Assembly (NCBI GenBank): GCA_035506275.1
Contig: DATJPT010000014.1
Span: forward strand, 23,736 to 87,735
Length of the DNA: 64,000 nucleotides
Reading direction: 5' to 3'
Source: Bacteroidota bacterium
Lineage (GTDB): Bacteria; Bacteroidota; Ignavibacteria; UBA10030; UBA8401
This document shows positions 27-57,558 of the stretch, piece after piece. The first letter of the stretch is position 1. Each line of letters starts with the position of its first letter. The position numbers and the translations under genes were made by a program. The notes beneath the pieces are model-generated. The model searched no databases. It was given only the letters and a program-made list of their open reading frames with translations, and was not told the DNA's origin.

Positions 27-605
27 TTGGCCGATGAGGATATTTTCACTTGGTTAAGATCTAAAAGTAAGCCTACCAAAGATGAAGTTTACCGCGCTTC
101 TACGGTCGTGGCTGATAGGTTATGCGGCGCTGTTGCGGACCCAATAATCCGCAATGCTCAGGAGAAACGGCAGCTCGCCTCAGTGAAGAAATGGCTTGAG
201 GATCGGGGCTATCGATATATTGACTTTCGTCATGGATTGAAGATGGAGAGTATGGAACCTGGGACATTCTCGTTCCGTTTTAACGTTCAGGTGAAGCAAA
301 CCGGTCGCAGTGAGCAAGTCAACATACCCATCGATATTATTATCAAGCCGCTCAAGGGCCCGAAAAGCCATTTACCCATTCTTGTTGAAGCAAAATCAGC
401 GGGCGATTTCGCTAACACAAACAAAAGGCGAAAAGAAGAGGCGATGAAGGTGGCTCAGTTACGGGCAACATACGGCAAAGGAGTCCAATTTATTCTGTTC
501 CTCTGCGGTTATTTTGACAGTGGTTACCTCGGTTACGAAGCCGCGGAAGGGATCGACTGGGTATGGGAACATCGGATGGAAGATCTCGCGAAGTTGGGAC
601 TTTAA
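27..605 (+). CDS. putative restriction endonuclease (PD-(D/E)xK-like); reading frame open to window start, so probably 5'-truncated
   Basis: D...ExK-like motif (PIDIIIKP...LVEAKS); stop at 603-605 lies 2 nt before the ATG of the adjacent adenine methyltransferase (R-M operon layout). Confidence 0.4.
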   Translation: MADEDIFTWLRSKSKPTKDEVYRASTVVADRLCGAVADPIIRNAQEKRQLASVKKWLEDRGYRYIDFRHGLKMESMEPGTFSFRFNVQVKQTGRSEQVNIPIDIIIKPLKGPKSHLPILVEAKSAGDFANTNKRRKEEAMKVAQLRATYGKGVQFILFLCGYFDSGYLGYEAAEGIDWVWEHRMEDLAKLGL

Positions 606-607
606 AT

Positions 608-2200
608 ATGCAAAAAAATGATACCATAGAGGCATTGCGCATCCGCTCTCAGGTAACGCTTGACAGCGCCAAGACACAAACGGAGAGGAACAAGCTCGGC
701 CAGTTTGCGACCCCACCGCACCTTGCGCTCGCTATCCTTGATGAGACACGGAAGTACTTTGGCTCGGATGAAAAAGTGCGTTTCCTTGATCCCGCTTTCG
801 GGACCGGTGCTTTCTATTCCGCGTTGTTGCGGACGTTCCGGGCGGCGCGTATCGAATCAGCGTGTGGATTTGAAATAGATTCCCATTACGGGGGCGAGGC
901 AGAAAGGCTTTGGACCGATTTGCCCCTGGATCTGGAGATAGGCGATTTCTTCCGTGTGAAAATTCCTGGGACAGACAGCGGAAAGGCCAATCTCATCGTA
1001 TGCAACCCCCCTTATGTCCGGCATCATCATCTTTCCGCTGAGCAGAAGGAGGAGATGGGCAGGAGCATTGGCAAATCGATCGGTTTGAAAGTCAACGGTC
1101 TCTCCGGACTCTATTGTTATTTCCTCATCTACGCCCACAATTGGCTTGCGGACAACGGCACTGGATGTTGGCTTGTTCCCAGCGAGTTCATGGATGTGAA
1201 CTATGGGGGCGTTGTGAAGGAGTATCTCCTGCGGAAGGTGACTCTTGCCCGTATCCATCGCTTCGATCCTAATGAATCACAGTTCGACGATGCGCTCGTC
1301 TCCTCGGCCGTGATCTGGTTCAGGAAAACGCCGCCTCCGAATAATCATACCGTCGAATTCACCTTCGGCGGAACGCTCGCATCGCCGCGCGTCTCACGGC
1401 AGGTGCCGGTCGCCGAAATTCTGCGAGTTCCAAAATGGACGAGATTCACGAACGGTCATTCGACGAGTGCTGATGCGAAGGTGAGACTGTCTGATCTCTT
1501 CGACGTGAAGCGGGGATTGGCGACGGGGGCGAATGAATTTTTCATCTTGACCCCGGAAGATGCAAAGAAATATGACCTTCCGTCGAAGTTCCTCATACCG
1601 ATTTTGCCGAGTCCCCGTTACCTGAAGACAGATATCATCAAGGCGGACAAGAAAGGAAACCCGATCACGGAAAAGCCCCGCTTCTTACTCTCATGTAAAC
1701 TTCCGCCAAGTCAGGTCAAACGAGAATTTTCTTCTCTCTGGAAATATCTGGAATCTGGAATCGGGCAGGGAATCCGCGACGGTTATCTTTGCCAGCACCG
1801 GACGCCTTGGTATGGGCAGGAGGATCGACCGGCTTCTCCCTTTCTCTGCACGTACATGGGGAGGCACGATTCGCCGAACGGGAGTCCCTTCAGATTCATC
1901 CTCAATACTTCAAAGGCGACAGCAGCAAACGTGTATCTGTTTCTCTATCCTAAACCCTGGCTGTCGAAATTGATTGATGAGCGTCCGGCCCTCGTGAAGG
2001 AAATCTGGAAGCGATTAAATAGCATTTCTTCGGAATCCTTGGTCGCTGAAGGCCGTGTCTATGGCGGAGGGCTGCATAAAATGGAACCGAAGGAACTCGG
2101 AAATGCGTCCGCAGACGGCATTCTTGAATCACTTCCCGAGCTTCGCTCGCGTTTCCGACACTCAAGTTCTGCGTATTTCTTATCTCAGCCATTTCTCTGA
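608..2200 (+). CDS. N6-adenine DNA methyltransferase, gamma-class (Type II R-M methylase)
   Basis: AdoMet motif I DPAFGTGAF followed by catalytic motif IV NPPY (CNPPYVRHH); C-terminal ~250 aa probable target-recognition domain; start moved to ATG at 608 immediately after upstream stop (the track ORF 563.. overlaps the upstream gene). Confidence 0.7.
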   Translation: MQKNDTIEALRIRSQVTLDSAKTQTERNKLGQFATPPHLALAILDETRKYFGSDEKVRFLDPAFGTGAFYSALLRTFRAARIESACGFEIDSHYGGEAERLWTDLPLDLEIGDFFRVKIPGTDSGKANLIVCNPPYVRHHHLSAEQKEEMGRSIGKSIGLKVNGLSGLYCYFLIYAHNWLADNGTGCWLVPSEFMDVNYGGVVKEYLLRKVTLARIHRFDPNESQFDDALVSSAVIWFRKTPPPNNHTVEFTFGGTLASPRVSRQVPVAEILRVPKWTRFTNGHSTSADAKVRLSDLFDVKRGLATGANEFFILTPEDAKKYDLPSKFLIPILPSPRYLKTDIIKADKKGNPITEKPRFLLSCKLPPSQVKREFSSLWKYLESGIGQGIRDGYLCQHRTPWYGQEDRPASPFLCTYMGRHDSPNGSPFRFILNTSKATAANVYLFLYPKPWLSKLIDERPALVKEIWKRLNSISSESLVAEGRVYGGGLHKMEPKELGNASADGILESLPELRSRFRHSSSAYFLSQPFL

Positions 2201-2295
2201 GGCTCATTAACCTTATCGTCTTTCCTGATTGACTCTCTATTTAACTGTCGCACGTTGCAAAACGAGCAATAATTTCCGGTTGCTTGAGCGACTGG

Positions 2296-2826
2296 TTAAG
2301 TGCCGCCTCGCAGTTCCCAAATCGGCGGATACTTCTTCCCGGTAATTAAATGATGAAGGCTTCTCAATGCAGAATTAATTTCTATCGGCACAATTTTCAA
2401 CTCATCAAGTGTCACAACTTCTACAGACGTTTTCAATTTTCCTCTTGCAGTACCAACACCCATCTCAATTTTTCCAGTTTGTTCATTTATTGTCATTCCA
2501 TTGTGCAAATAACGATTGCGCAATTTTTGAGCCTTCTTTAGTTCAACAATTGTCTCAGGGTACATTTTTAATCTTGGAAATTGTGGTATCAAGTATTCAC
2601 AAAGCGATGATAACATGTCAAGTTTTTGTGGGAAATTTGCGTGTGTTATCAAAATAAAATTCCTCATATCAGTCAAAGATTCAGAGCCAGCGAGTTTGGA
2701 AATATTCATATCTAGGGAAGATTCAAGATATGCCCACATTGTAGCAATGCGTCCCAACTCCATAAGGAATTCATTGGGAAGCGGCCAGCCATTTCTGTCA
2801 AATTCTGGAATTTTAGATTTAGTCAT
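2296..2826 (-). CDS. cassette ORF, hypothetical protein (last cassette of array; degenerate attC remnant downstream)
   Basis: ATG 4 nt after core site GTTAGGC (minus strand); downstream only a partial attC-like end (ttgagcgactggttaag at 2283-2297, overlapping the stop). Confidence 0.55.
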   Translation of the reverse strand: MTKSKIPEFDRNGWPLPNEFLMELGRIATMWAYLESSLDMNISKLAGSESLTDMRNFILITHANFPQKLDMLSSLCEYLIPQFPRLKMYPETIVELKKAQKLRNRYLHNGMTINEQTGKIEMGVGTARGKLKTSVEVVTLDELKIVPIEINSALRSLHHLITGKKYPPIWELRGGT

Positions 2827-2833
2827 TTTAGGC

Positions 2834-3017
2834 GCCTAACGGACCGGAGATAAGCTGCTGCGACGACCAGCCGCGACAAGGTAGCTCGTTGCGCGGACGT
2901 TCCAGTAGGGTGCTTCTAAGTCCGTCCCACAACGCCCGGCGAAATCGTCGACAGCTGGTTCGGTCAGTGAGCGCTTTTCGCCATCACGCTTTGCGTGACT
3001 TGAGCGACTGGTTAGGG
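2834..3017 (-). repeat. attC-like recombination site 1 (184 bp)
   Basis: left end GCCTAAC (RYYYAAC), right end GTTAGGG (GTTRRRY-like), imperfect internal inverted repeats with unpaired bases; right ~65 bp near-identical to the other copies. Confidence 0.7.
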
Positions 3018-3027
3018 CGCACACACG

Positions 3028-3885
3028 TCATGGTGGTTGGTGTAATAACAATTGAGCAAATTGAATTTCATTGCAAGCTTCTTGAAACCTGCCGGCAACT
3101 GCAAATTTTAATCTCGGATGGAAAGTCTTCGGACTAGTCCGAACAGGTAATTGCTTCAGGATATTTAATGTGAAGAAATGCGCACTTATATCATCTGCTT
3201 TTGTAAGAAGAACAATAATGCCAAAATGTGCATTTGGATAGTTTAATAGGTGTGGTTCGAACTTCTTCTGGAATTTATTCTTGATAATTGCGATTAAGCA
3301 TTTAATAGCTTCTTCATGATCATCAGATAGATAAGCACCTTGGCTTGGCACTAACTTCAGGTTTTTGCACTCTTCTAATTCCAGAGTTGGTGTGGTACAA
3401 TCAAGGAGCCAAATAGGTTGATCATTTGCATCAATAATGGCAACATCAGCGTTTGGAGGTGAGAGCCCTTTGCTTGGCTTCTGTAAGGGAAAATCAAATT
3501 TTATATTTAAGTTGGCCTTTTTTAATCGAGCCGCGAACCAGAGCTCTGATGCGGTGTCCCAGAATGAAGTGCTACCAATATTTGAAAGTTTATGACTTAT
3601 TTCCTTTTTGTCATTCTCAGTCAGCATTGGCAAAATTCTAGTTAGGCTCGCTTCGATATTTCTTAGATTCGTTCGGGGATCGTAAGCCGAGGGCGGGAAA
3701 TCGCTTGTGGCAACTAAGAGAGCTTCAAGCAAGTTGAATGGGCGATTTTTGTGACTTAGGGATAAGTCGATGATTCCATTGGATAACTGCGCTCGAATGC
3801 TTCCCCAATCTAAAATTTGATTAAGCTGGGGAAAACTCAGAGCGTTTCTTTGAGCGGTTTCTAGTTGTGAGTTAAATGCTGTCAT
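3028..3885 (-). CDS. cassette ORF, hypothetical protein (285 aa)
   Basis: stop 10 nt before attC-1 core; same orientation as all other cassette ORFs. Confidence 0.6.
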   Translation of the reverse strand: MTAFNSQLETAQRNALSFPQLNQILDWGSIRAQLSNGIIDLSLSHKNRPFNLLEALLVATSDFPPSAYDPRTNLRNIEASLTRILPMLTENDKKEISHKLSNIGSTSFWDTASELWFAARLKKANLNIKFDFPLQKPSKGLSPPNADVAIIDANDQPIWLLDCTTPTLELEECKNLKLVPSQGAYLSDDHEEAIKCLIAIIKNKFQKKFEPHLLNYPNAHFGIIVLLTKADDISAHFFTLNILKQLPVRTSPKTFHPRLKFAVAGRFQEACNEIQFAQLLLHQPP

Positions 3886-3927
3886 TTGTGCGCCCTAACG
3901 TACCGCGGTTAAGCTGCGGCGGCGAGA
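3886..3927 (-). repeat. half attC-like site (R''/L'' arm only)
   Basis: gcgccctaacgtaccgcggttaagctgcggcggcgag matches the left arm of the full elements, but no right arm; it fills the whole 42-bp gap between two cassette ORFs. Confidence 0.5.
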
Positions 3928-4620
3928 TTAACGCAAATACAGTTGATTTCTTGTCGTTAAATATTGGTAGACATAAGGTTTCTCCCTAAAGGCATCGACC
4001 TTAGATGTATCGACTTCATTCCCAAAATGGAGGAGAGTTGGTTTGATTCGAATTGAATCTATGCTCCATTTCATGTCCAGGGCATTCTTGTGTACTGCAG
4101 TGGGGAAGAAGGCATCGACGTCAAGTTCCTCAAAAGTGTTTGATGGTATTCGGAGAATTTGAGTTTGCTCACTCTCTTCGTTAGGGTCAAGATACCAATC
4201 CGTAAAGAGTCTGCCAGTAGACAAAAGAGTTCGATGTTTTCCAGTAAACCCTCTTTCCATAATTCCAAGGGGCTTGGCGAGAGCGGAATCGGCCATATAA
4301 ATAAAAGATTTGTCGTCCCGATTCTGATCATATTCAACATCACGTCCGTAGGCCGCCCAGACACTTGGGAGGAGCTCTACTCGGCGCGAGCTGGGATTCT
4401 TAATTGAGGCTTTCATTTCTACGATAAGAACGGAGGTCGATTGACCGTTAGTTTTCAGTGGATAGGCTCCAATTTTTTTCAACTCGAGGTGCGCAGTGAT
4501 ATTCGCTGGCTCGTTATACTCTTTGTACAAAAATATCGATGCAGCCCATATGCCAGCGACAATAATTCCAAGTGTCTGAACCCAAGTATTAATCTGTTCG
4601 CTAATTGATCGATTCGACAT
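3928..4620 (-). CDS. cassette ORF, hypothetical protein with N-terminal TM helix
   Basis: internal ATG at 4620 preceded by GGAGGA 9 nt upstream; the track start at 4647 is only 11 nt from the attC core, hence the revised start. Confidence 0.55.
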   Translation of the reverse strand: MSNRSISEQINTWVQTLGIIVAGIWAASIFLYKEYNEPANITAHLELKKIGAYPLKTNGQSTSVLIVEMKASIKNPSSRRVELLPSVWAAYGRDVEYDQNRDDKSFIYMADSALAKPLGIMERGFTGKHRTLLSTGRLFTDWYLDPNEESEQTQILRIPSNTFEELDVDAFFPTAVHKNALDMKWSIDSIRIKPTLLHFGNEVDTSKVDAFREKPYVYQYLTTRNQLYLR

Positions 4621-4657
4621 AAAGACAGTCCTCCGAATTAATTGCATGAATCTCGCC

Positions 4658-4832
4658 GCCTAACGGACCGGAGCTAAGCTGCGGCGACGTGCAACGTCGC
4701 CGCGGTAGTCATTCCGTGCGTGGTATGTCATGTCCGATAGTAACTCCCATTTGCGCGCACAAGATCGCCGACGGCTGGTTCCGTCAGTGAGCTCCAAAAG
4801 CGCCATCCGCCTTTAGCGTGACTTGAGGGATT
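4658..4832 (-). repeat. attC-like site 3 (right core degenerate, GTTATTC)
   Basis: GCCTAAC left core, conserved ctaagctgcggcg and ggctggttccgtcagtgag...cgtgacttgag blocks. Confidence 0.6.
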
Positions 4833-4864
4833 GGTTATTCCGCTAGCGCTTACTTTGTTATCAT

Positions 4865-5575
4865 CTACGGTGTCGGTGTGTACCCGCCACCACGAAGCCA
4901 ATGAACTTTCATATGATTCTTTACCAACTGGTCACCGATCTGAAAAGTGAGCTTTTCCATCCACTCTTCATCGAACACTTTGTCAAAGATCACCAAAAGT
5001 TGCTGAATCAGGTCATTGAGATTTTGAAAAACTAATTTCGCGTGTTTAGGACTCAGTTCAAACGGATTAAAAGGGATTTGTGTATGTGGCCAGTAATTTT
5101 TCCCATGTAACACTTTAAGGTCGGGAGCATAGTCATCTTCTGAAGAAATATAAAGTCCAAGGCGTTGCGCATCCAGATAAATTCCGGTTTTTGGATGTAC
5201 CCATGAATTCCTAATTCTTACAAGTTCAACGAAAGTTTGAAATACATTTCCAGCTTTATCAAAACCTTTGGTCGAGACTTCCACCCCGCAGAATTTTGGA
5301 GCCAATAACCACTTTTCTGGAAGGCTTAGTTTATCAATGGCTTTGAAAGTGTCATCACCAACTTTGCCAATGTAGAATTCGGAATAAACCTTATTGATCA
5401 ACGCCTCACTGGCAAAAACAGTAGAAAGAAGGCAATGCCGTGCAAAATAGGAAATTAGCTTCCCTTTTTGATCTTTTGTGAATTCTTCTTCAGCAAGTTC
5501 CAAGAATTTTTCCGCATCTCTGTAGTGCACGTAGAAGAAATTTAGCTCAATCTTAGCTTCTAGATTAGGAGGCAT
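4865..5575 (-). CDS. cassette ORF, hypothetical protein (236 aa)
   Basis: ORF between attC-like sites 3 and 4, same orientation. Confidence 0.55.
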   Translation of the reverse strand: MPPNLEAKIELNFFYVHYRDAEKFLELAEEEFTKDQKGKLISYFARHCLLSTVFASEALINKVYSEFYIGKVGDDTFKAIDKLSLPEKWLLAPKFCGVEVSTKGFDKAGNVFQTFVELVRIRNSWVHPKTGIYLDAQRLGLYISSEDDYAPDLKVLHGKNYWPHTQIPFNPFELSPKHAKLVFQNLNDLIQQLLVIFDKVFDEEWMEKLTFQIGDQLVKNHMKVHWLRGGGYTPTP

Positions 5576-5640
5576 GGATTAATCGTCTGTAAGTATGGTT
5601 TCTTTACCGAGCCGCCTGCGGTTTTGTAGAAGCGCAAGCG

Positions 5641-5792
5641 GTATAACAGACCGGAGCAAAGCTGCGGCGGTGAACGGCTGCCACCAGTTAGTTCGTTGCG
5701 GAGACCTTCCAGCCAGAAGTGCTAAATCCGGCCAACAACGCGCGACGAAATTGTCTACGGCTGTTTCCGCCCGCTTGAATACCGGTTAGTGC
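5641..5792 (-). repeat. attC-like site 4 (diverged; cores GTATAAC / GTTAGTG)
   Basis: retains ccggagcaaagctgcggcgg and inverted gcaagcgg/ccgcttga arms but is shorter and has degenerate cores. Confidence 0.5.
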
Positions 5793-5804
5793 GCAAAATA
5801 TTGA

Positions 5805-6206
5805 TCATGGTTGATTCATGCAATATTTATCCCACCATTTAGAGAGAATTCCGGGCGGAATCGATCCATTAAGGTCCCGTATTCTGCGAAGTTCTCGACA
5901 AATGCATTTCTTAACAGCTACAGTAGCGCTATCAACTTCATTAGGAAGATAGCCGTCTTCATCCACAAGCACATCATTATAGCTAGTCCAACAACGCTCA
6001 ACACGCACCTGCATGTTATTAAGCACATCGACTGGCACTAAATTTTCAAGTTGCGTTGCCTCCAATTGTAACTGCCGGTCAGAGTTGATCTTTGGATATG
6101 TTTCTTTAAATGCATTGTTGGCTTTCTTTCTATCTCTTAGAGTAGCCCAAAGATCAACGGCTTGCATTGTAGCCGATATGCCTGCGATGATTATTTCAGC
6201 TGCCAT
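5805..6206 (-). CDS. cassette ORF, hypothetical protein (133 aa)
   Basis: ORF between attC-like sites 4 and 5. Confidence 0.5.
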   Translation of the reverse strand: MAAEIIIAGISATMQAVDLWATLRDRKKANNAFKETYPKINSDRQLQLEATQLENLVPVDVLNNMQVRVERCWTSYNDVLVDEDGYLPNEVDSATVAVKKCICRELRRIRDLNGSIPPGILSKWWDKYCMNQP

Positions 6207-6239
6207 CAGAACCTCCCGTAAAATGTTTTTTTGTTTTGC

Positions 6240-6390
6240 GCCTAACGAACCGGAGCTAAGCTGCGGCGCGGTGCAGCCAGTTCCATGTAAAATATACGCG
6301 CGGCAGACGTCGCCTTTTCCCTCAAAAACTATTTTCGCGCGCGGCGAAGAGCTGGCCGCTGGTTCCGTCAGCTTGAGCTGCTGGTTAGGC
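6240..6390 (-). repeat. attC-like site 5 (151 bp)
   Basis: GCCTAAC ... GTTAGGC; conserved ccggagctaagctgcggcg block. Confidence 0.65.
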
Positions 6391-6419
6391 AGCGGCTCGA
6401 ATTAAGTGTTGTGCACCGG

Positions 6420-7184
6420 CTAGTACATGTTCTTGTAGATGCTTGAAATGTCCTCCGTGATTTCGAGATAAGGCTTGGCCACCGCAAACAAGGCACCGAC
6501 CGAAACCAACAAGAACGCCAGTACCATAAGGACGGCCGTGACCTGGTAATCGAACTGTGTCCATGCTTCAGCACCCGCCTTGAAGAGGATTGTCATGCTG
6601 ACACCAATGGAGGCAGCCAGACCCAAGTAGGCTTGCACAGTTATTTTTAGATATTTGTCAACTTCTGATTTAAGATAAGAAATGTAGTCTCGCTTCTTTT
6701 GGAACTCTGATAGTCTCTGGCAAACAGCGACTTGATTTTTTATGTCGGCGAAGAAAAACTGTGCGAGAAGATAACCGCACAGTGTTCCGGTGAAAATGAC
6801 AGACCACACTACATTGATTATGCCAAAGCCCATAAAGCGCATGACGCTGACACTTGATAGTAAATTGGCTAAAGACGTCAGGAGAGAATTGTAAAATAGG
6901 TGCGGAATCGTCGTGACGAGGAAGATTTCAATTGCGCTCGACAGAGCAATTATCAAAAATGCGATATTCCAATTTCGGGCAACGACAGGATCGATGGTAA
7001 GGTATACACTGCCATTCAATAATGGTTTGCTGAAGAAGTAGACAGCAAGGCAAAGATTAATGTAGAGAACAGCAAATGCCTTGTTCTGTGCGTATTGATT
7101 TGAAGCATAGCTCGGGTAAGAGATCACAATCGCAAGCAACGCTATATAAGAAATTGTCAATGGTACAATGCCGAAGAGGTTCAT
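6420..7184 (-). CDS. cassette ORF, polytopic membrane protein (~6 TM)
   Basis: hydrophobic segments throughout; start revised to ATG at 7184 because the track start (7244) lies inside attC-6. Confidence 0.55.
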   Translation of the reverse strand: MNLFGIVPLTISYIALLAIVISYPSYASNQYAQNKAFAVLYINLCLAVYFFSKPLLNGSVYLTIDPVVARNWNIAFLIIALSSAIEIFLVTTIPHLFYNSLLTSLANLLSSVSVMRFMGFGIINVVWSVIFTGTLCGYLLAQFFFADIKNQVAVCQRLSEFQKKRDYISYLKSEVDKYLKITVQAYLGLAASIGVSMTILFKAGAEAWTQFDYQVTAVLMVLAFLLVSVGALFAVAKPYLEITEDISSIYKNMY

Positions 7185-7211
7185 GGGTTCTCGAAATATT
7201 TGGGTTCTGCT

Positions 7212-7395
7212 GCCTAACGAACCGGAGTTAAGCTGCGGCGGCAAAAAGCCGCCGCAAGGTAGCTCGTTGCGCGGACGTATCCGTTGATCATATCTTTTCC
7301 AGCGTACTATCGCGCGGCGAAATCGTCGACGGCTGGTTCGGTCAGTGAGCGCTTTTCGCCATCACGCTTTGCGTGACTTGAGCGACTGGTTAGGC
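7212..7395 (-). repeat. attC-like site 6 (184 bp)
   Basis: GCCTAAC ... GTTAGGC; nearly identical to site 1 over both ends. Confidence 0.7.
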
Positions 7396-7403
7396 GGTTG
7401 CAC

Positions 7404-8126
7404 CTAGATCCAAATAGCGTATGGCTTGATTTGAAACGATTCTATTTTGGGTATTGGAAAAAGTATTCCGAAAACGTTCAACGGAATATTTTCACCTGAA
7501 TATCCGGAAAAAAAGAATGCTTCGTGACGCGAAAAAGAGTGAAGACTCCCTTCGCTACTAGGAAATTTAGAAATGCTTGCAGCCATAGCTAATGGGACCT
7601 TAATTTCTTTGAAATAATTGTCAGAATATTTGTAGTTGTCAAGTTTCTTGTCTTTTTCAAAGTAGACATAACCAACGGAATTGATATTTTCGATAGCTCG
7701 TCGTCGGTCGCCATAAAACTGGGGAGCGTCGAAAGTGGATTTAACAAGAATATATACGGGACCATCTGACAATTTAGTTGCTTTAGATGCCTCGCCGAGA
7801 TTATCAAATAGACTAGGAGGAGAAATAGAAGAGAGTTTGTTTACGAGCCCACCCAAAAGATTTTCCGCTTTAATTTCAATCCGGACACTCTCATTTATAG
7901 ATTTTGATTTTGTGAACTCCCCAGTGCCATCAAGTTCCAAAAGTCGGAAGAGCGTACCGAGTGCTTTTGCTAAACCTATTTTTGCACCCAGCTTGCCTGC
8001 ACTTTGTTTGCCTTCTCCCTTTGTAATTTCTACTGGAACCCCTTGCTCAATTTGAGCGTAGAGGCTTCGGATTCCTTCTTCGTCAAGGTAAATGAATCGG
8101 CGTGGTATTTCAAGCATAGAGATCAT
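7404..8126 (-). CDS. cassette ORF, hypothetical protein
   Basis: ATG at 8126 preferred; the track start at 8153 is a TTG abutting the attC. Confidence 0.5.
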   Translation of the reverse strand: MISMLEIPRRFIYLDEEGIRSLYAQIEQGVPVEITKGEGKQSAGKLGAKIGLAKALGTLFRLLELDGTGEFTKSKSINESVRIEIKAENLLGGLVNKLSSISPPSLFDNLGEASKATKLSDGPVYILVKSTFDAPQFYGDRRRAIENINSVGYVYFEKDKKLDNYKYSDNYFKEIKVPLAMAASISKFPSSEGSLHSFSRHEAFFFSGYSGENIPLNVFGILFPIPKIESFQIKPYAIWI

Positions 8127-8155
8127 GGTTCCGTCTATATGTTTTGAGTGCAACC

Positions 8156-8339
8156 GCCTAACGGACCGCAGCTAAGCTGCGGCAACGTGCAGCCAGTTCC
8201 ATGTAGAATATACGCGCGGCAGACATCGCCATTTCCCTAAATAAATTTTTCAGGCGCGCGGCGAAATCGCCAACGGCTGGTTCCGTCAGTGAGCGCTTTT
8301 CGCCATCACGCTTTGCGTGACTTGAGCCGCTGGTTAGGC
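8156..8339 (-). repeat. attC-like site 7 (184 bp)
   Basis: GCCTAAC ... GTTAGGC; conserved ends. Confidence 0.7.
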
Positions 8340-8360
8340 AGCCCATCGGTATGATACAAG

Positions 8361-8831
8361 CTATCTCTTATTCGGATTATGAAGAAGCATAGACACTTTT
8401 TCGACTACCCAAAAGAATAATGGAATCTCAGACATTAAAGCAAGCTGTCCAAAGATAGGGAAGTATGTCTTGAGATCCCCAGGACTTTCGTAGTGAAGAT
8501 AAATTGTAATCCCTATCCAAGCGAAGACAGGTAGCAGGCCGACAAAAATATAGAATACGATTCCGATAATGATTGTTGCGAGACTTTGTTGCTCAAACGT
8601 ACTCTTATCTTCCGGAAGACGGCGAGGCAGTAAGAGAATTACTCCGGCAACAAGCAAGGCAAAACCGGCTGATGTCGTCGAAAACTTCCCGCCAAAGAAT
8701 TCAAAATTGAGTCCAATCTCCCCTGTACCAGAAATACCTTTCCATAGGAAAGCTATCGAAGAAAGACATAGAATGGCACCGACAATGGTTCGGACTATTG
8801 TTATTTGTTTATTGAAATTTGATTCATCCAT
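8361..8831 (-). CDS. cassette ORF, small membrane protein (4 TM)
   Basis: hydrophobic helices; ATG at 8831. Confidence 0.5.
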   Translation of the reverse strand: MDESNFNKQITIVRTIVGAILCLSSIAFLWKGISGTGEIGLNFEFFGGKFSTTSAGFALLVAGVILLLPRRLPEDKSTFEQQSLATIIIGIVFYIFVGLLPVFAWIGITIYLHYESPGDLKTYFPIFGQLALMSEIPLFFWVVEKVSMLLHNPNKR

Positions 8832-8854
8832 ATGGCACAATGTTTTTTGGGGCT

Positions 8855-9040
8855 GCCTAACGGACCGGAGCTATGCTGCGGCGGCGAAGCGCCGCAGCGA
8901 CAGAATTCAGTCCGCGCGAGACGAGTCATGTCCAACAAGTAACAGGTTGTTTCGCGCGCATTGAATTATCGACGGCTGGTTCTGTCAGTGAGTGCTTGAA
9001 GCACCATGGCGTAGAGCGCCACTTGAGCGACGGGTTAGGG
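8855..9040 (-). repeat. attC-like site 8 (186 bp)
   Basis: GCCTAAC ... GTTAGGG; conserved ggctggttctgtcagtgag block. Confidence 0.65.
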
Positions 9041-9061
9041 CGCACCATATGAGAAATTTAA

Positions 9062-9673
9062 CTAGTGGAGAATTTCCATAAATGTCGGCGATTTTCTAAA
9101 AGCCTTAAATTGACTATCTTCTCGAATAATGGATTTAAAGTCGTCATCAATTTGAATAACTTTTGCCACCTCCGAGATCGCACTTTGCTGAAAACCAGAA
9201 CTCCAATAGGCCAAAGCGAGATTATAGTGGGCCCATATATTGGTCGAATCTAGTTGGACAGAGCGCTGAAGGTCAGCCAAGGCTGATGGTAGATTCTTGT
9301 TCTTGTAGTACAAGTAGCCTCTCAAATTGTAGGCAGTTGAACTTGAGGAATCTAGTTGGATTGCCTTTGTGTAAGAGTCTATAGCTTGTTTCCGTTTTCC
9401 TGTTTCAGCATATGCGATTCCATTGTTCAGGAACTCTGTGGAGATCCGTTCCCTTTCATTTTCCTTAAGGAGCAATGATACGGAATCGCGAAGGATAGAA
9501 GCCACGGCGAAATGGTTCTTATCTTCATTGATCACTTTGTTGACCTCTACTTGCCTAGTGTGATTCCACCATATCAGAGAAATGAAAGAGATCAACATCG
9601 CTATTACGCCCAATGAAGTTACTAGAGCGCCTATTCTTGAGTTCTTTTTGAGTTTGAGCAATTCATCGTCCAT
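9062..9673 (-). CDS. TPR-repeat protein with N-terminal TM anchor (first cassette, gene 2 of 2)
   Basis: N-terminal TM helix then tetratricopeptide-like repeats (AIQLDSSSSTAYNLRGYLYYKNKNLPSALADLQRSVQLD...AHYNLALAYW). Confidence 0.55.
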   Translation of the reverse strand: MDDELLKLKKNSRIGALVTSLGVIAMLISFISLIWWNHTRQVEVNKVINEDKNHFAVASILRDSVSLLLKENERERISTEFLNNGIAYAETGKRKQAIDSYTKAIQLDSSSSTAYNLRGYLYYKNKNLPSALADLQRSVQLDSTNIWAHYNLALAYWSSGFQQSAISEVAKVIQIDDDFKSIIREDSQFKAFRKSPTFMEILH

Positions 9674-9960
9674 GATTCGTATCCTTTCTGCCCACGGGGT
9701 TTAAGAGCTGGAGGGCGTCACTCCACATTTTGAGTAGCCTTCCGCTAGTAAAGGCAATTCCCCCAGATGAGCCGAACATTCCGATTATTGAAGGGATCTC
9801 CTCCTGGCCTTTTGAATAAATTAAATAGATCGCACATCCTAAGAGAGAACAAAAGGAAACGATAGTGACGATCAAATACACGATTCTTTCCATCTTAAAC
9901 ATCTTAAGCAGTTTACCGATGGCTTCTACTTTCTTATCAAGATCATCTTGTTCGGCCATT
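9663..9960 (-). CDS. small membrane protein (first cassette, gene 1 of 2)
   Basis: two hydrophobic helices; 11-nt overlap with downstream TPR gene; a lone core site GTTAGGG (minus) sits ~55 nt upstream. Confidence 0.45.
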
Positions 9961-10242
9961 TTGCTCACTCTGATGAGAATATTTAATCATGGTGATCAAT
10001 CTCTGTATTCAGCCTCCGTGTGCCCTAACTATGATTAGATTGCATATGCAGGTATGCGCTGGTTTTTAGTGTGATATATTGCTCCCTGTAGGATAGATAA
10101 TAGAATAATTGAGGGATAGTCCGGTAGGTTTTTGAACGCCCCCTCGCGATTGTCTCTGCTGCAAAACTACGGCAATTCAAATACAGATGCAACTTTAGAA
10201 GGGAGCCGAATGATGGAAGTGTAATGATGGAAAAATGAAGAA

Positions 10243-10283
10243 AACAAAAAAGCCCGACGTGGGGGGACGCCGGGCTCTGACCC
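10243..10283 (-). terminator. rho-independent terminator
   Basis: minus strand gcccggcgtcccccc/acgtcgggc hairpin followed by ttttttgtttt, downstream of the T9SS gene. Confidence 0.6.
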
Positions 10284-10472
10284 TTTCTAGGTGCGACGCT
10301 CAGGGGAGGAAGCGTCACACAGGTCATTTGAATGAAAATATGAAAACGTATTTTGTTTGTCAAGAAAAATAAGACGATGTTTCGTCCGCGCTCATCACTC
10401 CCGCATAGAAACTTACTTCAGGAGTTCCATCTTACGCGTCTGGACAAATTCTCCGGACTGCAACCGGTAGAA

Positions 10473-11651
10473 TTAAGTGCCGCTTGGCAAAGAGCTGGCA
10501 GAGAAGGAAATTTCATGAATCCCAGTATTTTCTTCACCTTCGACAAGCTTCTGAACTTCTTGTCCGAGGACATTGTAGATCTTGAGCGTCATAAAACTCC
10601 GAGTTGGGAGCGAGTATTGGATTGTCGTCGTTGGATTGAACGGATTTGGATAGTTCTGGCTAAGCTCGAATTGATTCGGGATCTGGTTTGTGTGACCCTT
10701 GATTGAAGTTATCATATCCGATAACGGTCGCATCCAAACATTATTCACCGAGGTTTGAACGAAGAGGTTCGAGCCCATTACGGCCAATGATATAACACTG
10801 GTATCAGTCAATCCGGCATTAACCGTCATCCAATTCGCGCCGTTATTAGTGGAAAGGAAAACTCCGTGATCGGTTCCCGCAAAAAGATTACCGTCACTGG
10901 CGGCAAGCACATTGACCGACGATATATTCGTCAATTCGGACCAGCTTGCACCGTTGTTAGTGGAAAGAAAAAGATCACCGTTTACTCCGGCAAAAAGATT
11001 ACTGCCACAGGCGACGAGTGCATAAACAGATATTTGCGGCACATAAGAGCCCGTTGGGTTTGGCAAACCGGAATCAACCTGGGCCCAACTGTTGCCATTG
11101 TTGGTTGATAAACAAACTCCTCCCTGCGTCGCGGCAAAAACGTTTGTTCCGATAAAAGCAAAGGATAAAATGGAATAATTCGTCAAACCATCATCGCTTT
11201 GCTGCAAGGATGAAAACATATCAGTCGATAACCAAATACCATATTCCAATGATCCCAAAAATATATTGGTGCCATTGGCTGCAATAGTATAGAGGTACTC
11301 ATCCGGAAGTTCATTTTTATAATTCCAAGTTGTGCCATTATCAGTTGACAACCAAATTTGATTATAGCCATATACTGTGACAAGATCGGTATTTATACCG
11401 ACAAGAGCGGTGACGTTATGATATCCGCTGTCCTGCAGGCTCCAGCTTAAGCCGTTGTTTGTAGAAAGATAAAAACCTTCTTTTGTCCCGACAAAAAGAT
11501 TTTTGCCGCCCGCTCCATTTGAACATGTGGTAAAGTATCTCCCGCCGAAGATACTGCTGTCTATGTCGGTTTTTTGCCACTGCGCGAACAATGGATTCAT
11601 ACCTGCAACGAAAAATGTAAAAAATGCTAAGACGTAATTTTTAATCTTCAT
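10473..11651 (-). CDS. T9SS-targeted BNR/Asp-box repeat protein; T9SS C-terminal domain interrupted by an in-frame TAA (intact gene would be 10413..11651)
   Basis: signal peptide, repeated S-x-D/N-x-G-x-x-W motifs, NYPNPFNPTTTIQY T9SS motif; minus-strand reading continues after the stop as FYRLQSGEFVQTRKMELLK*. Confidence 0.7.
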   Translation of the reverse strand: MKIKNYVLAFFTFFVAGMNPLFAQWQKTDIDSSIFGGRYFTTCSNGAGGKNLFVGTKEGFYLSTNNGLSWSLQDSGYHNVTALVGINTDLVTVYGYNQIWLSTDNGTTWNYKNELPDEYLYTIAANGTNIFLGSLEYGIWLSTDMFSSLQQSDDGLTNYSILSFAFIGTNVFAATQGGVCLSTNNGNSWAQVDSGLPNPTGSYVPQISVYALVACGSNLFAGVNGDLFLSTNNGASWSELTNISSVNVLAASDGNLFAGTDHGVFLSTNNGANWMTVNAGLTDTSVISLAVMGSNLFVQTSVNNVWMRPLSDMITSIKGHTNQIPNQFELSQNYPNPFNPTTTIQYSLPTRSFMTLKIYNVLGQEVQKLVEGEENTGIHEISFSASSLPSGT

Positions 11652-12608: not shown

Positions 12609-12896
12609 ATGTCGATTCAAACATATAAAAAGATTCCGAATCTTCTCAGGAAGTATCGTAGGATCCGGGGTCTCAATCAAAAAGAGATCGCTGCCATTCT
12701 GGGCCTGAGGAGTGCCAGCCTTGTATCGAGGTGGGAGAAAGGTCGCTGCATTCCAAGTCTCATGAACGCGATCCGGCTAGCGATCCTCTGCCGGAGCATG
12801 GTCGATGCGCTCTTCTTCGATCACGTGAGAGCGCTGCGCGTGGAAATCCGTGATCGGGAGGAAAGGGTTCTCGGGACAAAGAATTCCAACCAATGA
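12609..12896 (+). CDS. XRE-family HTH transcriptional regulator
   Basis: LNQKEIAAILGLRSASLVSRWEKG HTH_XRE-like motif. Confidence 0.6.
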   Translation: MSIQTYKKIPNLLRKYRRIRGLNQKEIAAILGLRSASLVSRWEKGRCIPSLMNAIRLAILCRSMVDALFFDHVRALRVEIRDREERVLGTKNSNQ

Positions 12897-13573
12897 ACGG
12901 AATAGCGCCACAAAATGATATCAGGAAAATGGAAGACGGGGGATGGTATTGGGTCTCAAAACCAGTGATCCAGGAATATGCCCCGAAAGTCGGGTTTCTT
13001 TCTGCGTGCGTTTACCACCTCTTGGCCAGCATGGCCGACGAGAACCAGAGTTGCTATCCGTCTCAGCGCTACATCGCGGAAAAACTCGGCTGCTGCCGGT
13101 CATCCGTGTCGAGAGCCGTGAGAAAGCTAAAGGATCAGGGCCTTATCAGATCCAACGGAAAGGGGAGGGATCACTCCGTTTATCAGCTTCTGAAAGTCAG
13201 AAGTTGCACCAGTGCAATTCAGGTGTCGCACCGGTGCAATTCAGATGATGCACCAGTTGACACTAACAATACTAGTTTAACAAGAAATAATAACAACAAT
13301 GTTGTTAGTGTAAAAAAAATTAACCGACGAACGGATTCTAATGAAGAATTCAAACCGCAGACGAAAGAGGAACTCCTGGCGTTGGAAATCGCTCAGACAC
13401 TCGGTGATCCAAGGAATCCCCGGAAATATCTGCAATATACCAAGCGTTATGCCGAATCACTGCTCAGGGAGGTGTTATCTCAGGTAAAACAAACCCCGGA
13501 AGAGAAAATCAAAAAGAGCCGCGTCGCGCTCTTCGTCTACCTCGTAAACCACTATGCAAAAAGATCAGCTTAA
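12893..13573 (+). CDS. winged-helix/HTH_36-like protein (phage or plasmid replication-associated type)
   Basis: YPSQRYIAEKLGCCRSSVSRAVRKLKDQGLI motif typical of replication-initiator-type HTH domains; Asn-rich linker; overlaps neighbours by 4 and 20 nt (operon). Confidence 0.5.
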   Translation: MNGIAPQNDIRKMEDGGWYWVSKPVIQEYAPKVGFLSACVYHLLASMADENQSCYPSQRYIAEKLGCCRSSVSRAVRKLKDQGLIRSNGKGRDHSVYQLLKVRSCTSAIQVSHRCNSDDAPVDTNNTSLTRNNNNNVVSVKKINRRTDSNEEFKPQTKEELLALEIAQTLGDPRNPRKYLQYTKRYAESLLREVLSQVKQTPEEKIKKSRVALFVYLVNHYAKRSA

Positions 13574-14057
13574 TATTTTGGCGATCAACCCTGGCAGCCG
13601 GTATCTCGGCATCGCCATCTTCGTCGGAGACGAACTCCGCGATTGGGCGGTAAAGCTTGCCAGGCGGGAGAATATTCGGGAGATGATTTCGGAATATATA
13701 AATCAGTATGGTGTTCACGTTGTCGCGTTCAAGAAATTCCATCCTTCGAGAAGCTCCCGTGATCTTCGCATGATCATCTCTTTGATGCAGGAGGTCGCAA
13801 AAAAGGCCGGACTCGCGCTTCGTGAGTACTCCATCGGCGAAGTAGAAGAGGCATTGCTGCCGGAGAAGAGAAAGAACAAGCAGCTCCTGATGCAAGAAGT
13901 CGTCGCTCGATATCCCTTCCTATCGAACGAGCTTCAGCGGGAAGCGAAAAACAAAAACCCTTATCTGATTCGGATGTTTGAAACCGTCGGGATTGGGAAG
14001 GTTTGTATGAGTGAACTTGAGACTGGTGTCCGAAAGGTCGAAAAAAAACAATTATGA
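13554..14057 (+). CDS. RuvC-like resolvase paralog, catalytically degenerate
   Basis: ILAINPGSRYLGIAIF aligns with RuvC N-terminal motif but has Asn in place of the first catalytic Asp; second acidic residue and the H/D pair also missing. Confidence 0.5.
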   Translation: MQKDQLNILAINPGSRYLGIAIFVGDELRDWAVKLARRENIREMISEYINQYGVHVVAFKKFHPSRSSRDLRMIISLMQEVAKKAGLALREYSIGEVEEALLPEKRKNKQLLMQEVVARYPFLSNELQREAKNKNPYLIRMFETVGIGKVCMSELETGVRKVEKKQL

Positions 14058-14063
14058 GCGAAA

Positions 14064-14561
14064 ATGAAGAAAGCAAAAAAGATACTCGCAATTGATCCAG
14101 GGACAAAACATCTCGGTTTCGCCTTGCTAGAAGGATCTGCGCTGATTCACTACGGGGTGAAGACAATTTCGGATGGGAGAACAGGGCAATTCCGTTTGGT
14201 CCAAGGGAGAGCGATCGTTTCAAGATTGATTGAAGACTTCAATCCGGATATCCTGTTTGTCGAGAAAACATATTTTGGAAATAACAAGGACTCGAAGACC
14301 TTGAATCAGCTTACAGAGCAGATTCGAAGAATGGGATTGAAAAAGGGGGTTATAGTCCAAACCATCGCAACGAATTCGGTGAGAAAAATTGTGTGTGGTA
14401 ACGGGGAGGCAGGTAAAGAGGATGTCGCGAAAGCGATGGTATCGAAATATCCGGAGCTTCGGCCATATCTCACTTCGGACAGGCGATGGAAGGAAGAATA
14501 TCACCGGAATATGTTTGACGCGGTGGCACTTGGATTGGCCGGCTGCGGATTGGTCAAATAA
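14064..14561 (+). CDS. ruvC: crossover junction endodeoxyribonuclease RuvC-like (catalytic residues intact)
   Basis: ILAIDPGTKHLGFALL (Asp), ILFVEKTYFGNN (Glu), HRNMFDAVALGLA (His/Asp); 165 aa. Confidence 0.6.
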   Translation: MKKAKKILAIDPGTKHLGFALLEGSALIHYGVKTISDGRTGQFRLVQGRAIVSRLIEDFNPDILFVEKTYFGNNKDSKTLNQLTEQIRRMGLKKGVIVQTIATNSVRKIVCGNGEAGKEDVAKAMVSKYPELRPYLTSDRRWKEEYHRNMFDAVALGLAGCGLVK

Positions 14562-14778
14562 CAAGGCCGATTTGATTTTAGAAGTTATCGACATGCAAAA
14601 AATGGAAACCATGGTTAGATAAGTTATGCGCGGCCTGAATATCATCCATTTGAATCCTGCCTTGAATCCTGCCTTGGGACCCATGCCTTGATTATTTGAA
14701 TGTGTTTGTTTAAGTTTCCGACTGGGGCGGGGGGCTGATCCCACCTCAAAACTCACTTTCACTTATCATGGAGATCGT

Positions 14779-14946
14779 ATGCCATCGACGGGAGATACTT
14801 GCTCTGTTTCCGGGATATACGAGGTTGTTAACCACATAGCCCATCCTCATCAGATCACAATGGTCGCGGGGAAAGAGTTTCCGCCGTGCCGGGAATGCCA
14901 CCAAAAAGTCGTGTACAGGCTAGTGCGAGCAACGCAACATTGATTT
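14779..14946 (+). CDS. small (55 aa) putative zinc-ribbon protein, not in ORF track
   Basis: MPSTGDTCSVSGIYEVV...GKEFPPCRECHQKVVYRLV; a Cys pair and FPPC-x-x-C motif are all I can see; weak SD. Confidence 0.25.
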
Positions 14947-15350
14947 TAACGTTGCGGTCCGGCGTTACCATCGAACAAATAGCCGAATCCACCCAACGCC
15001 GTTGTTGATTTTTTGGAGCCAGATTTAACAATAATCTGCTCATTGGCTTGCGGGTGCCCCGCTTCTTCGCTTTCAAGATTTTCCTGAAATGTTTTGAACT
15101 ATTTTTGGGGGCGAGGGAGGATGACCATTCTTTCCGGGTAAACATTGAAAGGGGTACTATGGTAGCTTCTCAAAATGTTGTAAATGTTGAAGACCAACTC
15201 GATGGGGTCACTCCGTTGTGCCTGAGTCATTTGTTGTTCAAAAAGTATTTCTTCCTACTTTGAATTTTTGACTCAAGAAAATTGGACTATTCATTTCTTG
15301 TGAACTGGATCAAACAATCAAGAAGTCATTCATTTTAACTGGGGACACTT

Positions 15351-15908
15351 ATGATTGGACTCACGGTCTTTACATTATTTGTTTTTTTTGTTATCGCGTT
15401 GATACGCCCCAAAAAACCGGTGATCGTCTCGCACTGGCATAATCTGATCCAGGGGCTTCAATTCTCGGTCGAAGACTACTACAATGCGCTCGACGCGGTG
15501 ATCGAGAAGCGAAAAGTTCCGGAAGTAAAGGTCGAGGTCACGCATTATCGTGAGGGTGGAATCGCGTCGGCGAAAAGGATGTACTTGAGGATTGGCCGGC
15601 GAGATCACATTTTCGATGTCTGTGCCGCTCCGTTTGGGACGGATTTCTTTGTTTCTTGGTGGCTGGGGCAAAACATGAAAACCATGGGCGCTATCATCAA
15701 CGGGCTCCCGTTCATCGGCCCTCCGCTGATCAGATTGTTCAGTCCCGAAACGTTCTACCGCATAGACACGGCTCTCATGTTTCAGGATTCGGTGCATCAG
15801 GCCGTTCTTGAAGTTCTCGACGACAGGATCAAGGGGCAGGGACTCCGTTCGATGACGGAATCGGAACGGAAACCGATCATGCGCGAACTCTTCAAACAGA
15901 GGAGGTAG
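15351..15908 (+). CDS. membrane-anchored hypothetical protein (gene 1 of ATPase module)
   Basis: single N-terminal TM helix; ends 4 nt before the next gene. Confidence 0.45.
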   Translation: MIGLTVFTLFVFFVIALIRPKKPVIVSHWHNLIQGLQFSVEDYYNALDAVIEKRKVPEVKVEVTHYREGGIASAKRMYLRIGRRDHIFDVCAAPFGTDFFVSWWLGQNMKTMGAIINGLPFIGPPLIRLFSPETFYRIDTALMFQDSVHQAVLEVLDDRIKGQGLRSMTESERKPIMRELFKQRR

Positions 15909-15912
15909 GCAG

Positions 15913-28184: not shown

Positions 28185-28406
28185 TATGTTCCTTTAACCA
28201 ACAATTGGAAGAAAAGGAGAGGAATAAATGTTAGCGTTCAAATAACTATGGGCGGCGTAGTGGCGCCGCCCATAGCCTAGTATCGGCAAATAACTCGGCT
28301 AAACCCTGCTATCCCCGTTTTTAAGGGATGCGTATGCCATTTTATTTGCTATCAGTAATAGTAACGAATTAAAACTCAAAATTCAAGACATAAGGAGAAA
28401 ACTCAA

Positions 28407-54725: not shown

Positions 54726-54734
54726 TGCTTCGCG

Positions 54735-55601: not shown

Positions 55602-55649
55602 GAATGTGGGCTGGACGAAACGAGGATTTGTCGGCAGGGTCGATGAAAG

Positions 55650-56741: not shown

Positions 56742-56752
56742 AAGGCGCTTAC

Positions 56753-57532: not shown

Positions 57533-57558
57533 GATGAGTTTTTAGAGAATGATCGAGA

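Follow-up and report, generated by a model that had tools for sequence, protein, structure and literature searches.

A chromosomal cassette array in an uncultured Bacteroidota-type bacterium is very probably a sedentary integron whose integrase gene was lost by deletion

We analysed a 64-kb stretch of contig DATJPT010000014.1 (64,000 nt, called the window below), in which a first-pass annotation, made from the letters alone, had pointed to an integron-like array of gene cassettes. We conclude with high confidence that positions 2239-10212 make up a chromosomal integron of the sedentary type, from an uncultured Bacteroidota/Ignavibacteria-type bacterium (Fibrobacterota-Chlorobiota-Bacteroidota, FCB, group) that lost its integrase gene, intI, by deletion; the locus is a further example of the known integron system, not a new kind of system. 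Its array, at 2239-10028, consists of nine co-oriented cassettes with ten open reading frames (ORFs) on the minus strand. The reading as a cassette array is upheld by evidence of several kinds, which all agree: the anatomy of the attC recombination sites, the recognition of class 1 attC sites by a matrix built from this family, the integrases that adjoin related arrays, a cassette shared between related genomes, and the confinement of the repeats to arrays.

The ten ORFs (98-285 aa) all lie on the minus strand and span 2296-9968, and the gaps between them are filled by one repeat family in uniform orientation, just as the earlier description of about ten minus-strand ORFs split by repeat elements had it. 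They make up nine cassettes and not ten, because the ORFs at 9663-9959 and 9062-9673 overlap within one cassette. On the plus strand the elements open with GCCTAAC and close with GTTAGGC or GTTAGGG, also as described. The array holds seven full attC sites, one truncated site (a2), of which only an R'-proximal remnant is left, and one short terminal site (a0) of 63 nt. The pattern of the 3' arm, GCAGCTTNNCTCCGGTNNGTTA, has 8 matches in the 64-kb window where shuffled sequences lead us to expect 0.03, and the 5' arm pattern has 7 matches (0.35 expected); these matches are all on the minus strand within 2283-9038, with none in the other 54 kb of the window. The sites of the window are as follows (the two-hairpin module is described further below):

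8855-9040, minus strand: attC a8, 186 nt; two-hairpin module at 8989-9021
8156-8339, minus strand: attC a7, 184 nt; module at 8290-8320
7212-7395, minus strand: attC a6, 184 nt; module at 7346-7376
6240-6390, minus strand: attC a5, 151 nt; standard form of the family without module, the best-preserved site
5641-5791, minus strand: attC a4, 151 nt, degenerate; cores CACTAAC and GTTATAC, several L-box mismatches
4658-4840, minus strand: attC a3, 183 nt; diverged module at 4788-4821, weakened R'' (GAATAAC)
3894-3927, minus strand: attC remnant a2, L'-R' end only (…CGCCGCAGCTTAACCGCGGTACGTTAGGG); 3' arm at 2 mismatches, no 5' arm found
2834-3017, minus strand: attC a1, 184 nt; module at 2968-2998
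2239-2301, minus strand: terminal site a0, 63 nt; R''-L'' half of the family (ACTTAACCAGTCGCTCAAG), the other half unrelated and ending in GTTAAAT

The cores GCCTAAC and GTTAGGC are both present in a5, a6, and a7; a1 and a8 deviate at one base, and a3 and a4 are degenerate. In a5 all 13 of the 13 R- and L-box pairs are intact (predicted folding probability, 0.18); a4 has 13 mismatches to the consensus arms and keeps 7 of 13 box pairs (scored over 5641-5790, with the R'' end one base short). Site a0, a short hairpin of -12 kcal/mol, marks the end of the array and may be either a short working attC or a half-site. The arms had been called near-identical, which is true of a1, a6, and a7 (92-98% identity over 84 nt) but not of the remaining sites. 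Measured against the family consensus, the window arms are more often mismatched than the arms of two giant arrays in relatives (Mann-Whitney p = 1e-4), an excess that may be due in part to phylogenetic distance from the genomes that dominate the consensus. The spacing is looser than the first-pass annotation had it: the start codon lies 7-65 nt from the R' core, not 4-15 nt, and the stop codon lies -7 to 29 nt from R''.

The anatomy of the sites is that of attC. On the cassette (minus) strand a site reads GCCTAAC-CAGTC-GCT[C]AAGCTG[A]CGG … CCGCAGCTTAGC-TCCGGTCC-GTTAGGC, and the 3'-end of the element on this strand is CGCCGCAGCTTAGC-TCCGGTCC-GTTAGGC. Pairing of the 5' arm, GCT[C]AAGCTG[A]CGG, with CCGCAGCTTAGC (CCG-CAGCTT-AGC) in the 3' arm leaves G16 and T23 of the bottom strand (the plus strand of the window) extrahelical with a 6-bp stem between them, and the R boxes GCCTAAC and GTTAGGC pair with each other. 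The numbering takes R'' as positions 1-7 and the spacer as positions 8-12, which places the unpaired bases at 16 and 23. The rules for attC sites call for G16 in L'', a conserved T at 23 or 24 and an optional third extrahelical base at 20, with a 6-bp stem separating the first from the last extrahelical base (PMC5027507). Folding of the bottom strand, the check that had been proposed, recovered the canonical R''/R' pairing, an unpaired spacer, the L box, and the extrahelical bases. RNAalifold, run on 41 family members less than 90% identical to one another (two of them from the window), recovered the L-box stem and both bulges; 96.8% of the cells are paired in the canonical structure, as against 23-41% when the partners are slid by 1-3 columns. 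The four inner R-box pairs are invariant in 41 of 41 members; the outermost pair is the position most often unpaired (12 of 41), as expected if TTRRRY of R' belongs to the next cassette. The conserved parts of the family are the integrase-binding R and L boxes and the extrahelical bases, and the interior is variable.

A position weight matrix built solely from the arms of this Bacteroidota attC family also finds attC sites of class 1 integrons. In the class 1 integrons of R100 and pSTM6-275 its top-ranking matches, on the correct strand, are the genuine attCs of aadA1, aadA2, psp, and cmlA1; these sites score 14-25 bits, and the best shuffled score is 11.9 (20 shuffles).

Arrays of the same family in other genomes adjoin integron integrases. 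A scan with the 3' arm pattern, with one genome per species, returned at least 120 tiles of 8 kb, which among the matches listed come mostly from Bacteroidota or Ignavibacteriota metagenome-assembled genomes (MAGs), many of them of the Microflora Danica. By tblastn with IntI1 (a query identical to the IntI1 of R100) we found full-length homologues in six loci, with 44-54% identity over about 320 aa among the matches listed. Altogether, full-length IntI genes lie beside arrays of the same attC family in at least eight loci (L003, L106, L075, L007, L087, L052, L129, and L130), of which L129 and L130 are contigs found by protein search that carry both IntI and this attC family; close IntI homologues also come from other samples of the ENA series to which assembly ERZ27256505 belongs. 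The three IntI homologues that we tested score 434-457 bits against TIGR02249, 'integron integrase', over the whole model (cut-off 265). The intI gene is divergent from the cassettes, the canonical arrangement, in L003, L106, L129, and L130. In five loci it is co-oriented with them: L007 (1759-2739), L075 (5876-6898), L087 (1685-2632), L052 (1203-2147), and L159 (3425-4180). The order is 'inverted' in L007 and L075, with intI upstream of the cassettes, and in L052 only 55 nt separate the end of an attC from the start codon of intI, as though the gene had taken the place of a cassette.

Cut at G|TT, the related arrays yielded 382 cassettes (median length, 752 nt, among the matches listed). One of these, 785 nt long and with genes for a BrnT/BrnA-like toxin-antitoxin pair, recurs in four genomes at 90-95% identity (among the matches listed); the cassettes downstream of it are unrelated, and upstream the similarity is limited to the preceding attC. 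Since homology is confined to the cassette boundaries in four genomes, the cassettes are discrete mobile units in these relatives. The scatter that the first-pass annotation had named as evidence against an integron was not found: the repeats are confined to arrays, both in the window and in the chromosomes of relatives. For example, family matches in the chromosome OY970334.1 are confined to 3.68-3.89 Mb, apart from one arm-only match (among the matches listed).

What the window retains of the integron platform lies next to the first cassette:

10022-10212, minus strand: attI and the attI-intI intergenic (promoter) region, through the intI start codon; homologous to the L003 and L106 platforms
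10022-10028, minus strand: attI R-box core GTTAGGG, the attI/cassette 1 junction (G|TT); the platform homology begins exactly here
10162-10169, minus strand: candidate cassette promoter (Pc) with a Bacteroidetes-type -7 box, TAGTTTTG, facing the array; conserved in related platforms
10210-10212, plus strand: intI remnant, start codon only; aligns with the ATG of the intI ORFs in L003 (1700-2659) and L106 (2566-3525)
10241-10277, minus strand: intrinsic-terminator-like hairpin with a T-run (minus-strand sequence AGCCCGGCGTCCCCCCACGTCGGGCTTTTTT), downstream of the BNR gene; occupies the space expected for intI
10473-11651, minus strand: BNR-repeat protein with the C-terminal sorting domain of the type IX secretion system (T9SS) (BNR, Por_Secre_tail); right boundary

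Window positions 10019-10212 align to L003 1487-1702 (84%) and L106 2356-2568 (82%), in each case between the first cassette and a full-length intI. The alignment opens at the core CCTAAC (GTTAGG on the cassette strand), and on the cassette side of this core the three loci are unrelated, as expected at an attI/cassette junction. The attI motif CAATCTAATCATAGTTAGG recurs in L003, L106, L093, and L095. These alignments support a predicted attI at the head of the array, with its core at 10022-10028. The candidate cassette promoter that we propose is the box TAGTTTTG, which matches the -7 consensus of Bacteroidetes promoters; L003, L106, and L093 share it with the window, and L095 and L028 have it with a single base changed.

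The homology ends right after the ATG of the 319-aa intI ORFs of L003 and L106, and the window continues with unrelated sequence. Searches by tblastn with IntI1 and with the IntI of L003 found no intI fragment anywhere in the 64-kb window, even at E<10, and Pfam found no tyrosine recombinase domain in any window ORF of at least 250 aa. Of what makes a complete integron, then, the attI at the head of the array is recognised by homology and the integrase is absent. The first-pass annotation was right that no integrase is in view, but attI and the intI start codon are visible at 10022-10212, just outside the interval it had reported. Judged from the alignments, the most economical reading is that the intI ORF was deleted and the rest of the platform stayed intact. 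An independent assembly (ENA ERZ27256505, contig k141_3603160) is identical over 19.7 kb, including the junction after the ATG, and cassette 1 with the same attI junction is identical on a Logan contig (L124); an assembly artefact is therefore unlikely.

We regard it as improbable that intI escaped deletion, was parted from its platform when a large mobile element inserted or the region was rearranged, and now lies, intact or split, beyond the window. Genes like those of mobile elements do lie past the boundary, at 12.6-18.9 kb (helix-turn-helix (HTH) regulators, a RuvC-like nuclease, and a TrwB/TraG-type coupling protein), and the arrays of OY970334.1, which run in three orientation blocks, indicate that rearrangements happen in these integrons. 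However, neither IntI query found a fragment at E<10 in the 54 kb downstream or elsewhere in the window; the junction after the ATG leads to a terminator and the 3'-end of a resident T9SS-substrate gene, with no recognisable element end; and the junction is identical in the independent ENA assembly.

Several observations weigh against reading the locus as an integron. The box stems are almost invariant, so that covariation adds little support. The spacer has 5 nt in the 5' arm (CAGTC) and 8 nt in the 3' arm (TCCGGTCC), and the two are not complementary; a central spacer usually has 5-6 nt per arm (PMC5027507), so the 3' arm here is 2 nt longer. The window sites, at 150-186 nt, exceed the classical attC range of 57-141 bp (PMC5371416, PMC5027507). 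In the family as a whole the commonest length is 152 nt (293 copies, among the matches listed). The default upper size of an attC in IntegronFinder is 200 nt. The predicted probability of the recombinogenic fold is only 2e-7 to 6e-4 for the module-bearing window sites, and about 1e-10 to 1e-12 for a3 and a4, where the family median is 0.018. We further count it on this side that our weight matrix is only a surrogate for the attC covariance model of IntegronFinder. Finally, none of the window cassettes was found in another context: comparison of their cargo with 120 related loci, at the DNA and protein levels, gave nothing but one weak match to tetratricopeptide repeats (TPR).

It is very improbable that the elements act mainly as RNA, ending or processing the transcript of a long operon between its cistrons, and that their attC-like ends are vestigial. 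Both strands do fold about equally well (for a7, -38.9 kcal/mol on the plus strand and -40.3 kcal/mol on the minus strand), and the stems of the module are held by compensatory changes, which suits RNA as well as single-stranded DNA. Conservation, however, falls on the integrase-binding R and L boxes and the extrahelical bases while the interior varies, and only attC function explains the association with integrases and the mobility of the cassettes. Nothing in Rfam matched the window or any of the five related loci scanned, a further point against an RNA; for the attC reading the result is uninformative, since Rfam appears to be without an attC family. An RNA role could in any case add to attC function, not replace it. 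As for a generic intergenic family of repetitive extragenic palindromes (REP) or miniature inverted-repeat transposable elements (MITE) unrelated to integron recombination, the length, GC-richness, structure, and intergenic position of the repeats, their stems nearly without covariation, and a window without an integrase would all fit, yet we give it almost no credence, because the window copies lie in one array on one strand in strictly uniform orientation and are not dispersed, the family sits in arrays in complete chromosomes, its arms are close enough to canonical attC to single out the class 1 sites, TIGR02249 integrases adjoin arrays in eight related loci, and homology between genomes is delimited by cassettes.

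The sedentary integron that we favour thus comprises nine cassettes, numbered from attI:

8861-10027, minus strand: cassette 1, 1167 nt; overlapping ORFs 9663-9959 (98 aa, membrane-like) and 9062-9673 (203 aa, TPR); ends with attC a8
8162-8860, minus strand: cassette 2, 699 nt; ORF 8361-8831 (156 aa, membrane-like)
7218-8161, minus strand: cassette 3, 944 nt; ORF 7404-8126 (240 aa, N-terminal match to DUF6414, PF19952, 34 bits)
6246-7217, minus strand: cassette 4, 972 nt; ORF 6420-7184 (254 aa, membrane-like)
5647-6245, minus strand: cassette 5, 599 nt; ORF 5805-6206 (133 aa)
4664-5646, minus strand: cassette 6, 983 nt; ORF 4865-5575 (236 aa)
3900-4663, minus strand: cassette 7, 764 nt; ORF 3928-4647 (239 aa); attC truncated
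2840-3899, minus strand: cassette 8, 1060 nt; ORF 3028-3885 (285 aa)
2245-2839, minus strand: cassette 9, 595 nt; ORF 2296-2826 (176 aa); stop codon within R''

With a2 reduced to its L'-R' end, cassettes 7 and 8 have become fused. Searches of the ten cargo proteins with Pfam, NCBIfam, and PADLOC found only the TPR repeats and the partial DUF6414, and no match to a defence system.

Five of the seven full window sites carry an insertion of 31-34 nt between AAG and CTG of the L'' arm, which forms two hairpins. The insertion lies exactly at position 20 and interrupts the 6-bp stem; the optional third extrahelical base that the Vibrio cholerae repeat (VCR) and the attC of oxa2 have at this point is replaced in these sites by a hairpin module. 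The 184-nt window sites are a module-bearing sub-variant of the family of about 152 nt. Outside the window the module occurs in one chromosome only, OY969888.1, among the genome matches listed; a metagenome scan added 30 further module sites in 24 loci, one of them on a contig with an IntI homologue. Eight of ten sequence variants of the module fold into the same two hairpins with compensating stems (TCACGC/GCGTGA, TCCCGC/GCGGGA, TGGCG/CGCCA, GTGCC/GGCAC). Since the stems are kept by compensatory changes, the module is no random damage but an old component of a sub-family, under constraint for its structure. We suggest tentatively that it may have a function of its own, in adjusting how an attC folds or how the integrase binds, and it provides a natural test of the structural load that an attC can bear and still recombine.

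The integron would work as follows. The retained platform would comprise attI with its crossover G|TTAGGG (10022-10028), the attI-intI region of about 185 nt, and a bare intI start codon; behind it would lie nine promoterless cassettes on the minus strand, each closed by an attC of the lineage-specific family. The bottom strand of an attC (window plus strand) is predicted to fold so that R' pairs with R'' and L' with L'', with G16 and T23 extruded and a long branched tip. By analogy with known integrons, an integron integrase would recombine the folded attC with attI or with another attC, leading to insertion, excision, and reordering of cassettes, and the cassettes nearest attI would be transcribed from the platform promoter. 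As there is no integrase in cis, any movement now needs IntI made elsewhere in the genome.

The lack of an integrase in cis, one truncated site, two degenerate sites, and low predicted folding probabilities stand on the side of decay; the degeneracy of a2, a3, and a4, together with those probabilities, suggests that the array is largely frozen. Orphan platforms of this kind could also be maintained as 'satellite' arrays, with attI and promoter under selection and cassettes exchanged by the IntI of another integron in the same genome, an idea that we put forward tentatively and think rather doubtful. At least three platforms without intI (the window, L095, and L028) keep the same conserved blocks, and the MAG MFD05467 bin20 carries an integron with intI (L003) together with a platform without it (L028). 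The window platform is 82-84% identical to platforms with intI and 65-68% identical to those of L095 and L028; as it is nearer to the former, intI was lost at least twice. The three platforms without intI all abut a gene with a T9SS tail, and we considered a single ancestral deletion, which we rejected as the sole explanation, since the window groups with the platforms that have intI. The three orphan arrays have no cassettes in common; their content is wholly different. In detail, each of the three platforms (window 10022-10472, L095 3092-3345, and L028 5849-6130) abuts the 3'-end of a gene for a protein with a T9SS sorting domain; these C-terminal domains are 49-53% identical, and the N-terminal parts are unrelated. 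The neighbours of the loci with intI are instead a glycoside hydrolase family 2 (GH2) enzyme and a DUF3857 protein. The abutment may be a coincidence in T9SS-rich genomes or a trace of how intI is lost.

Some relatives carry giant arrays of this family, comparable in size to the superintegron of Vibrio cholerae. Positions 1-128 kb of CAWGZY010000005.1 (tiles L036, L041, L018, L039, L030, L037, L009, L091, L053, L045, L108, L088, L097, and L093) hold an array of 127.8 kb in which at least 151 attCs all face the same way; it ends at an attI motif and is cut by the contig start. In the closed chromosome OY970334.1 the region 3.68-3.888 Mb (L066…L106) holds at least 137 attCs in 18 of 26 tiles over 208 kb, arranged in three orientation blocks with one intI. 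Two kinds of cassette recur many times in the giant arrays, one of about 404 nt with 44 copies and one of about 375 nt with 17, among the matches listed (for example, cassettes 2 and 9 of L009, and in L025, L059, and L036). Their cargo of 225-250 nt has no convincing ORF, is conserved across genomes, shares the motif TCTACAAGCAGTC, and has no Rfam match; these two cassettes may be non-coding, carrying a small RNA or a promoter. Other arrays (L056/L102 in OY969888.1 and L017/L026 in OY969815.1) open at another junction motif, CTATAATTAGCC…, directly downstream of housekeeping genes for a major facilitator superfamily (MFS) transporter, a multihaem cytochrome, and a GMC oxidoreductase; no integrase was found within the tiles of these arrays. 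Loci with a single match to the 3' arm motif (L021, L022, L027, L031, L047, L077, L083, L112, and L115-L117) extend its occurrence to MAGs of Anaerolineae, Gemmatimonadota, Thermoleophilia, Dehalococcoidia, KSB1, Calditrichota, Phycisphaerales, and Thermodesulfobacteriota. The motif is similar to the arm of the aadA2 attC, GCGGCTTAACTCCGGCGTT, which suggests an attC arm type widely shared across phyla.

To the left the array is bounded by a restriction-modification (RM) pair recognised by domain matches:

27-2200, plus strand: XamI-type restriction endonuclease (27-605, cut by the window start) and Eco57I-type methylase (563-2200); left boundary

In the ENA contig (L123 19069-20612) this pair is preceded by BubE and ThiF/DUF6791 genes, so that the array lies in a neighbourhood like a defence island. 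Beyond the right boundary, 12609-18945 encodes HTH regulators, a RuvC-like nuclease (14064-14561), and a 1010-aa ATPase like the TrwB/TraG-type coupling proteins (15913-18945); this block may be an integrated mobile element. A futalosine-pathway menaquinone cluster at 53883-62592 (VitK2_biosynth/MqnA-like, radical SAM CofH/MqnC-like, UbiD, UbiX-like, and UbiA), a set of housekeeping genes, shows that the window is chromosomal. Large secreted Por_Secre_tail proteins are encoded at 25965-31841 and 10473-11651 (BNR/sortilin-like proteins and a 1144-aa pro-kumamolisin-type peptidase), and several such proteins confirm a lineage that uses the T9SS. The guess of an FCB-like, T9SS-bearing lineage is thus borne out by these proteins and by the Bacteroidota-type relatives of the array.

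Integrons are best known from Proteobacteria. They have been reported in Bacteroidota (PMC8618304), but are very rare there in complete genomes: in those of Bacteroidetes proper, IntegronFinder 2.0 found only one complete integron (PMC9024848). Our results show a large, lineage-specific pool of cassettes in uncultured soil bacteria of the Bacteroidota type, with an attC family of its own of about 152 nt; some related genomes have arrays as large as the Vibrio superintegron, and loss of the integrase from an otherwise intact platform happened in more than one event. The integron paradigm is unchanged by this; it is extended taxonomically and structurally, and a large reservoir of uncharacterised cassettes is added. 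What makes the locus of interest is the long attC family, the module at position 20, the clean deletion of the integrase gene, and the giant arrays of its relatives.

Among known systems, the integron of the window may be compared with the clusters of attC sites lacking integron-integrases (CALINs), which have at least two attCs and no intI nearby. With seven full sites, a remnant, and a terminal site, and no intI in 64 kb, the array belongs to this class. CALINs have been interpreted as degraded integrons (PMC9024848); unlike an anonymous CALIN fragment, the window keeps attI, the intergenic region, and the intI start codon. In the layout of its platform it is of the canonical divergent type, as are L003 and L106. 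Integrons with an inverted intI are known as the Treponema denticola type, to which L007 and L075 are similar.

At the level of single sites the family resembles the attCs of aadA1 and aadA7, which likewise have an R'' of 7 nt, a 5-nt spacer, an extra base at the fourth L'' position, and a second one 6 bp later. In the aadA1 attC (the reference was confirmed at 100% identity directly after aadA1 in R100), R'' and the 5-nt spacer are followed by GTT[C]AAGCCG[A]CGCC, and the R' core has the form GTTAGxx as in the window family; by eye, the R''-L'' arms agree at about 19 of 24 bases. The aadA1 attC is about 60 nt long with a small terminal loop and a 3' spacer of 6 nt, whereas the window family has about 95-130 nt between its arms and a 3' spacer of 8 nt.

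As a whole, the locus is most like the superintegron of Vibrio cholerae and its VCR sites. Both are chromosomal arrays of many small, mostly unannotatable cassettes in one orientation; in both, the attCs are homogeneous within the lineage, have long branched terminal structures, and have a low predicted folding probability (PMC5371416). The relatives of the window also carry toxin-antitoxin cassettes and arrays of Vibrio-like size. Unlike the Vibrio system, the window belongs to an uncultured host of the Bacteroidota type; its attCs are 150-186 nt long (VCR, 120-129 nt), with a 3' spacer arm of 8 nt and a hairpin module in five sites, and its intI has been lost.

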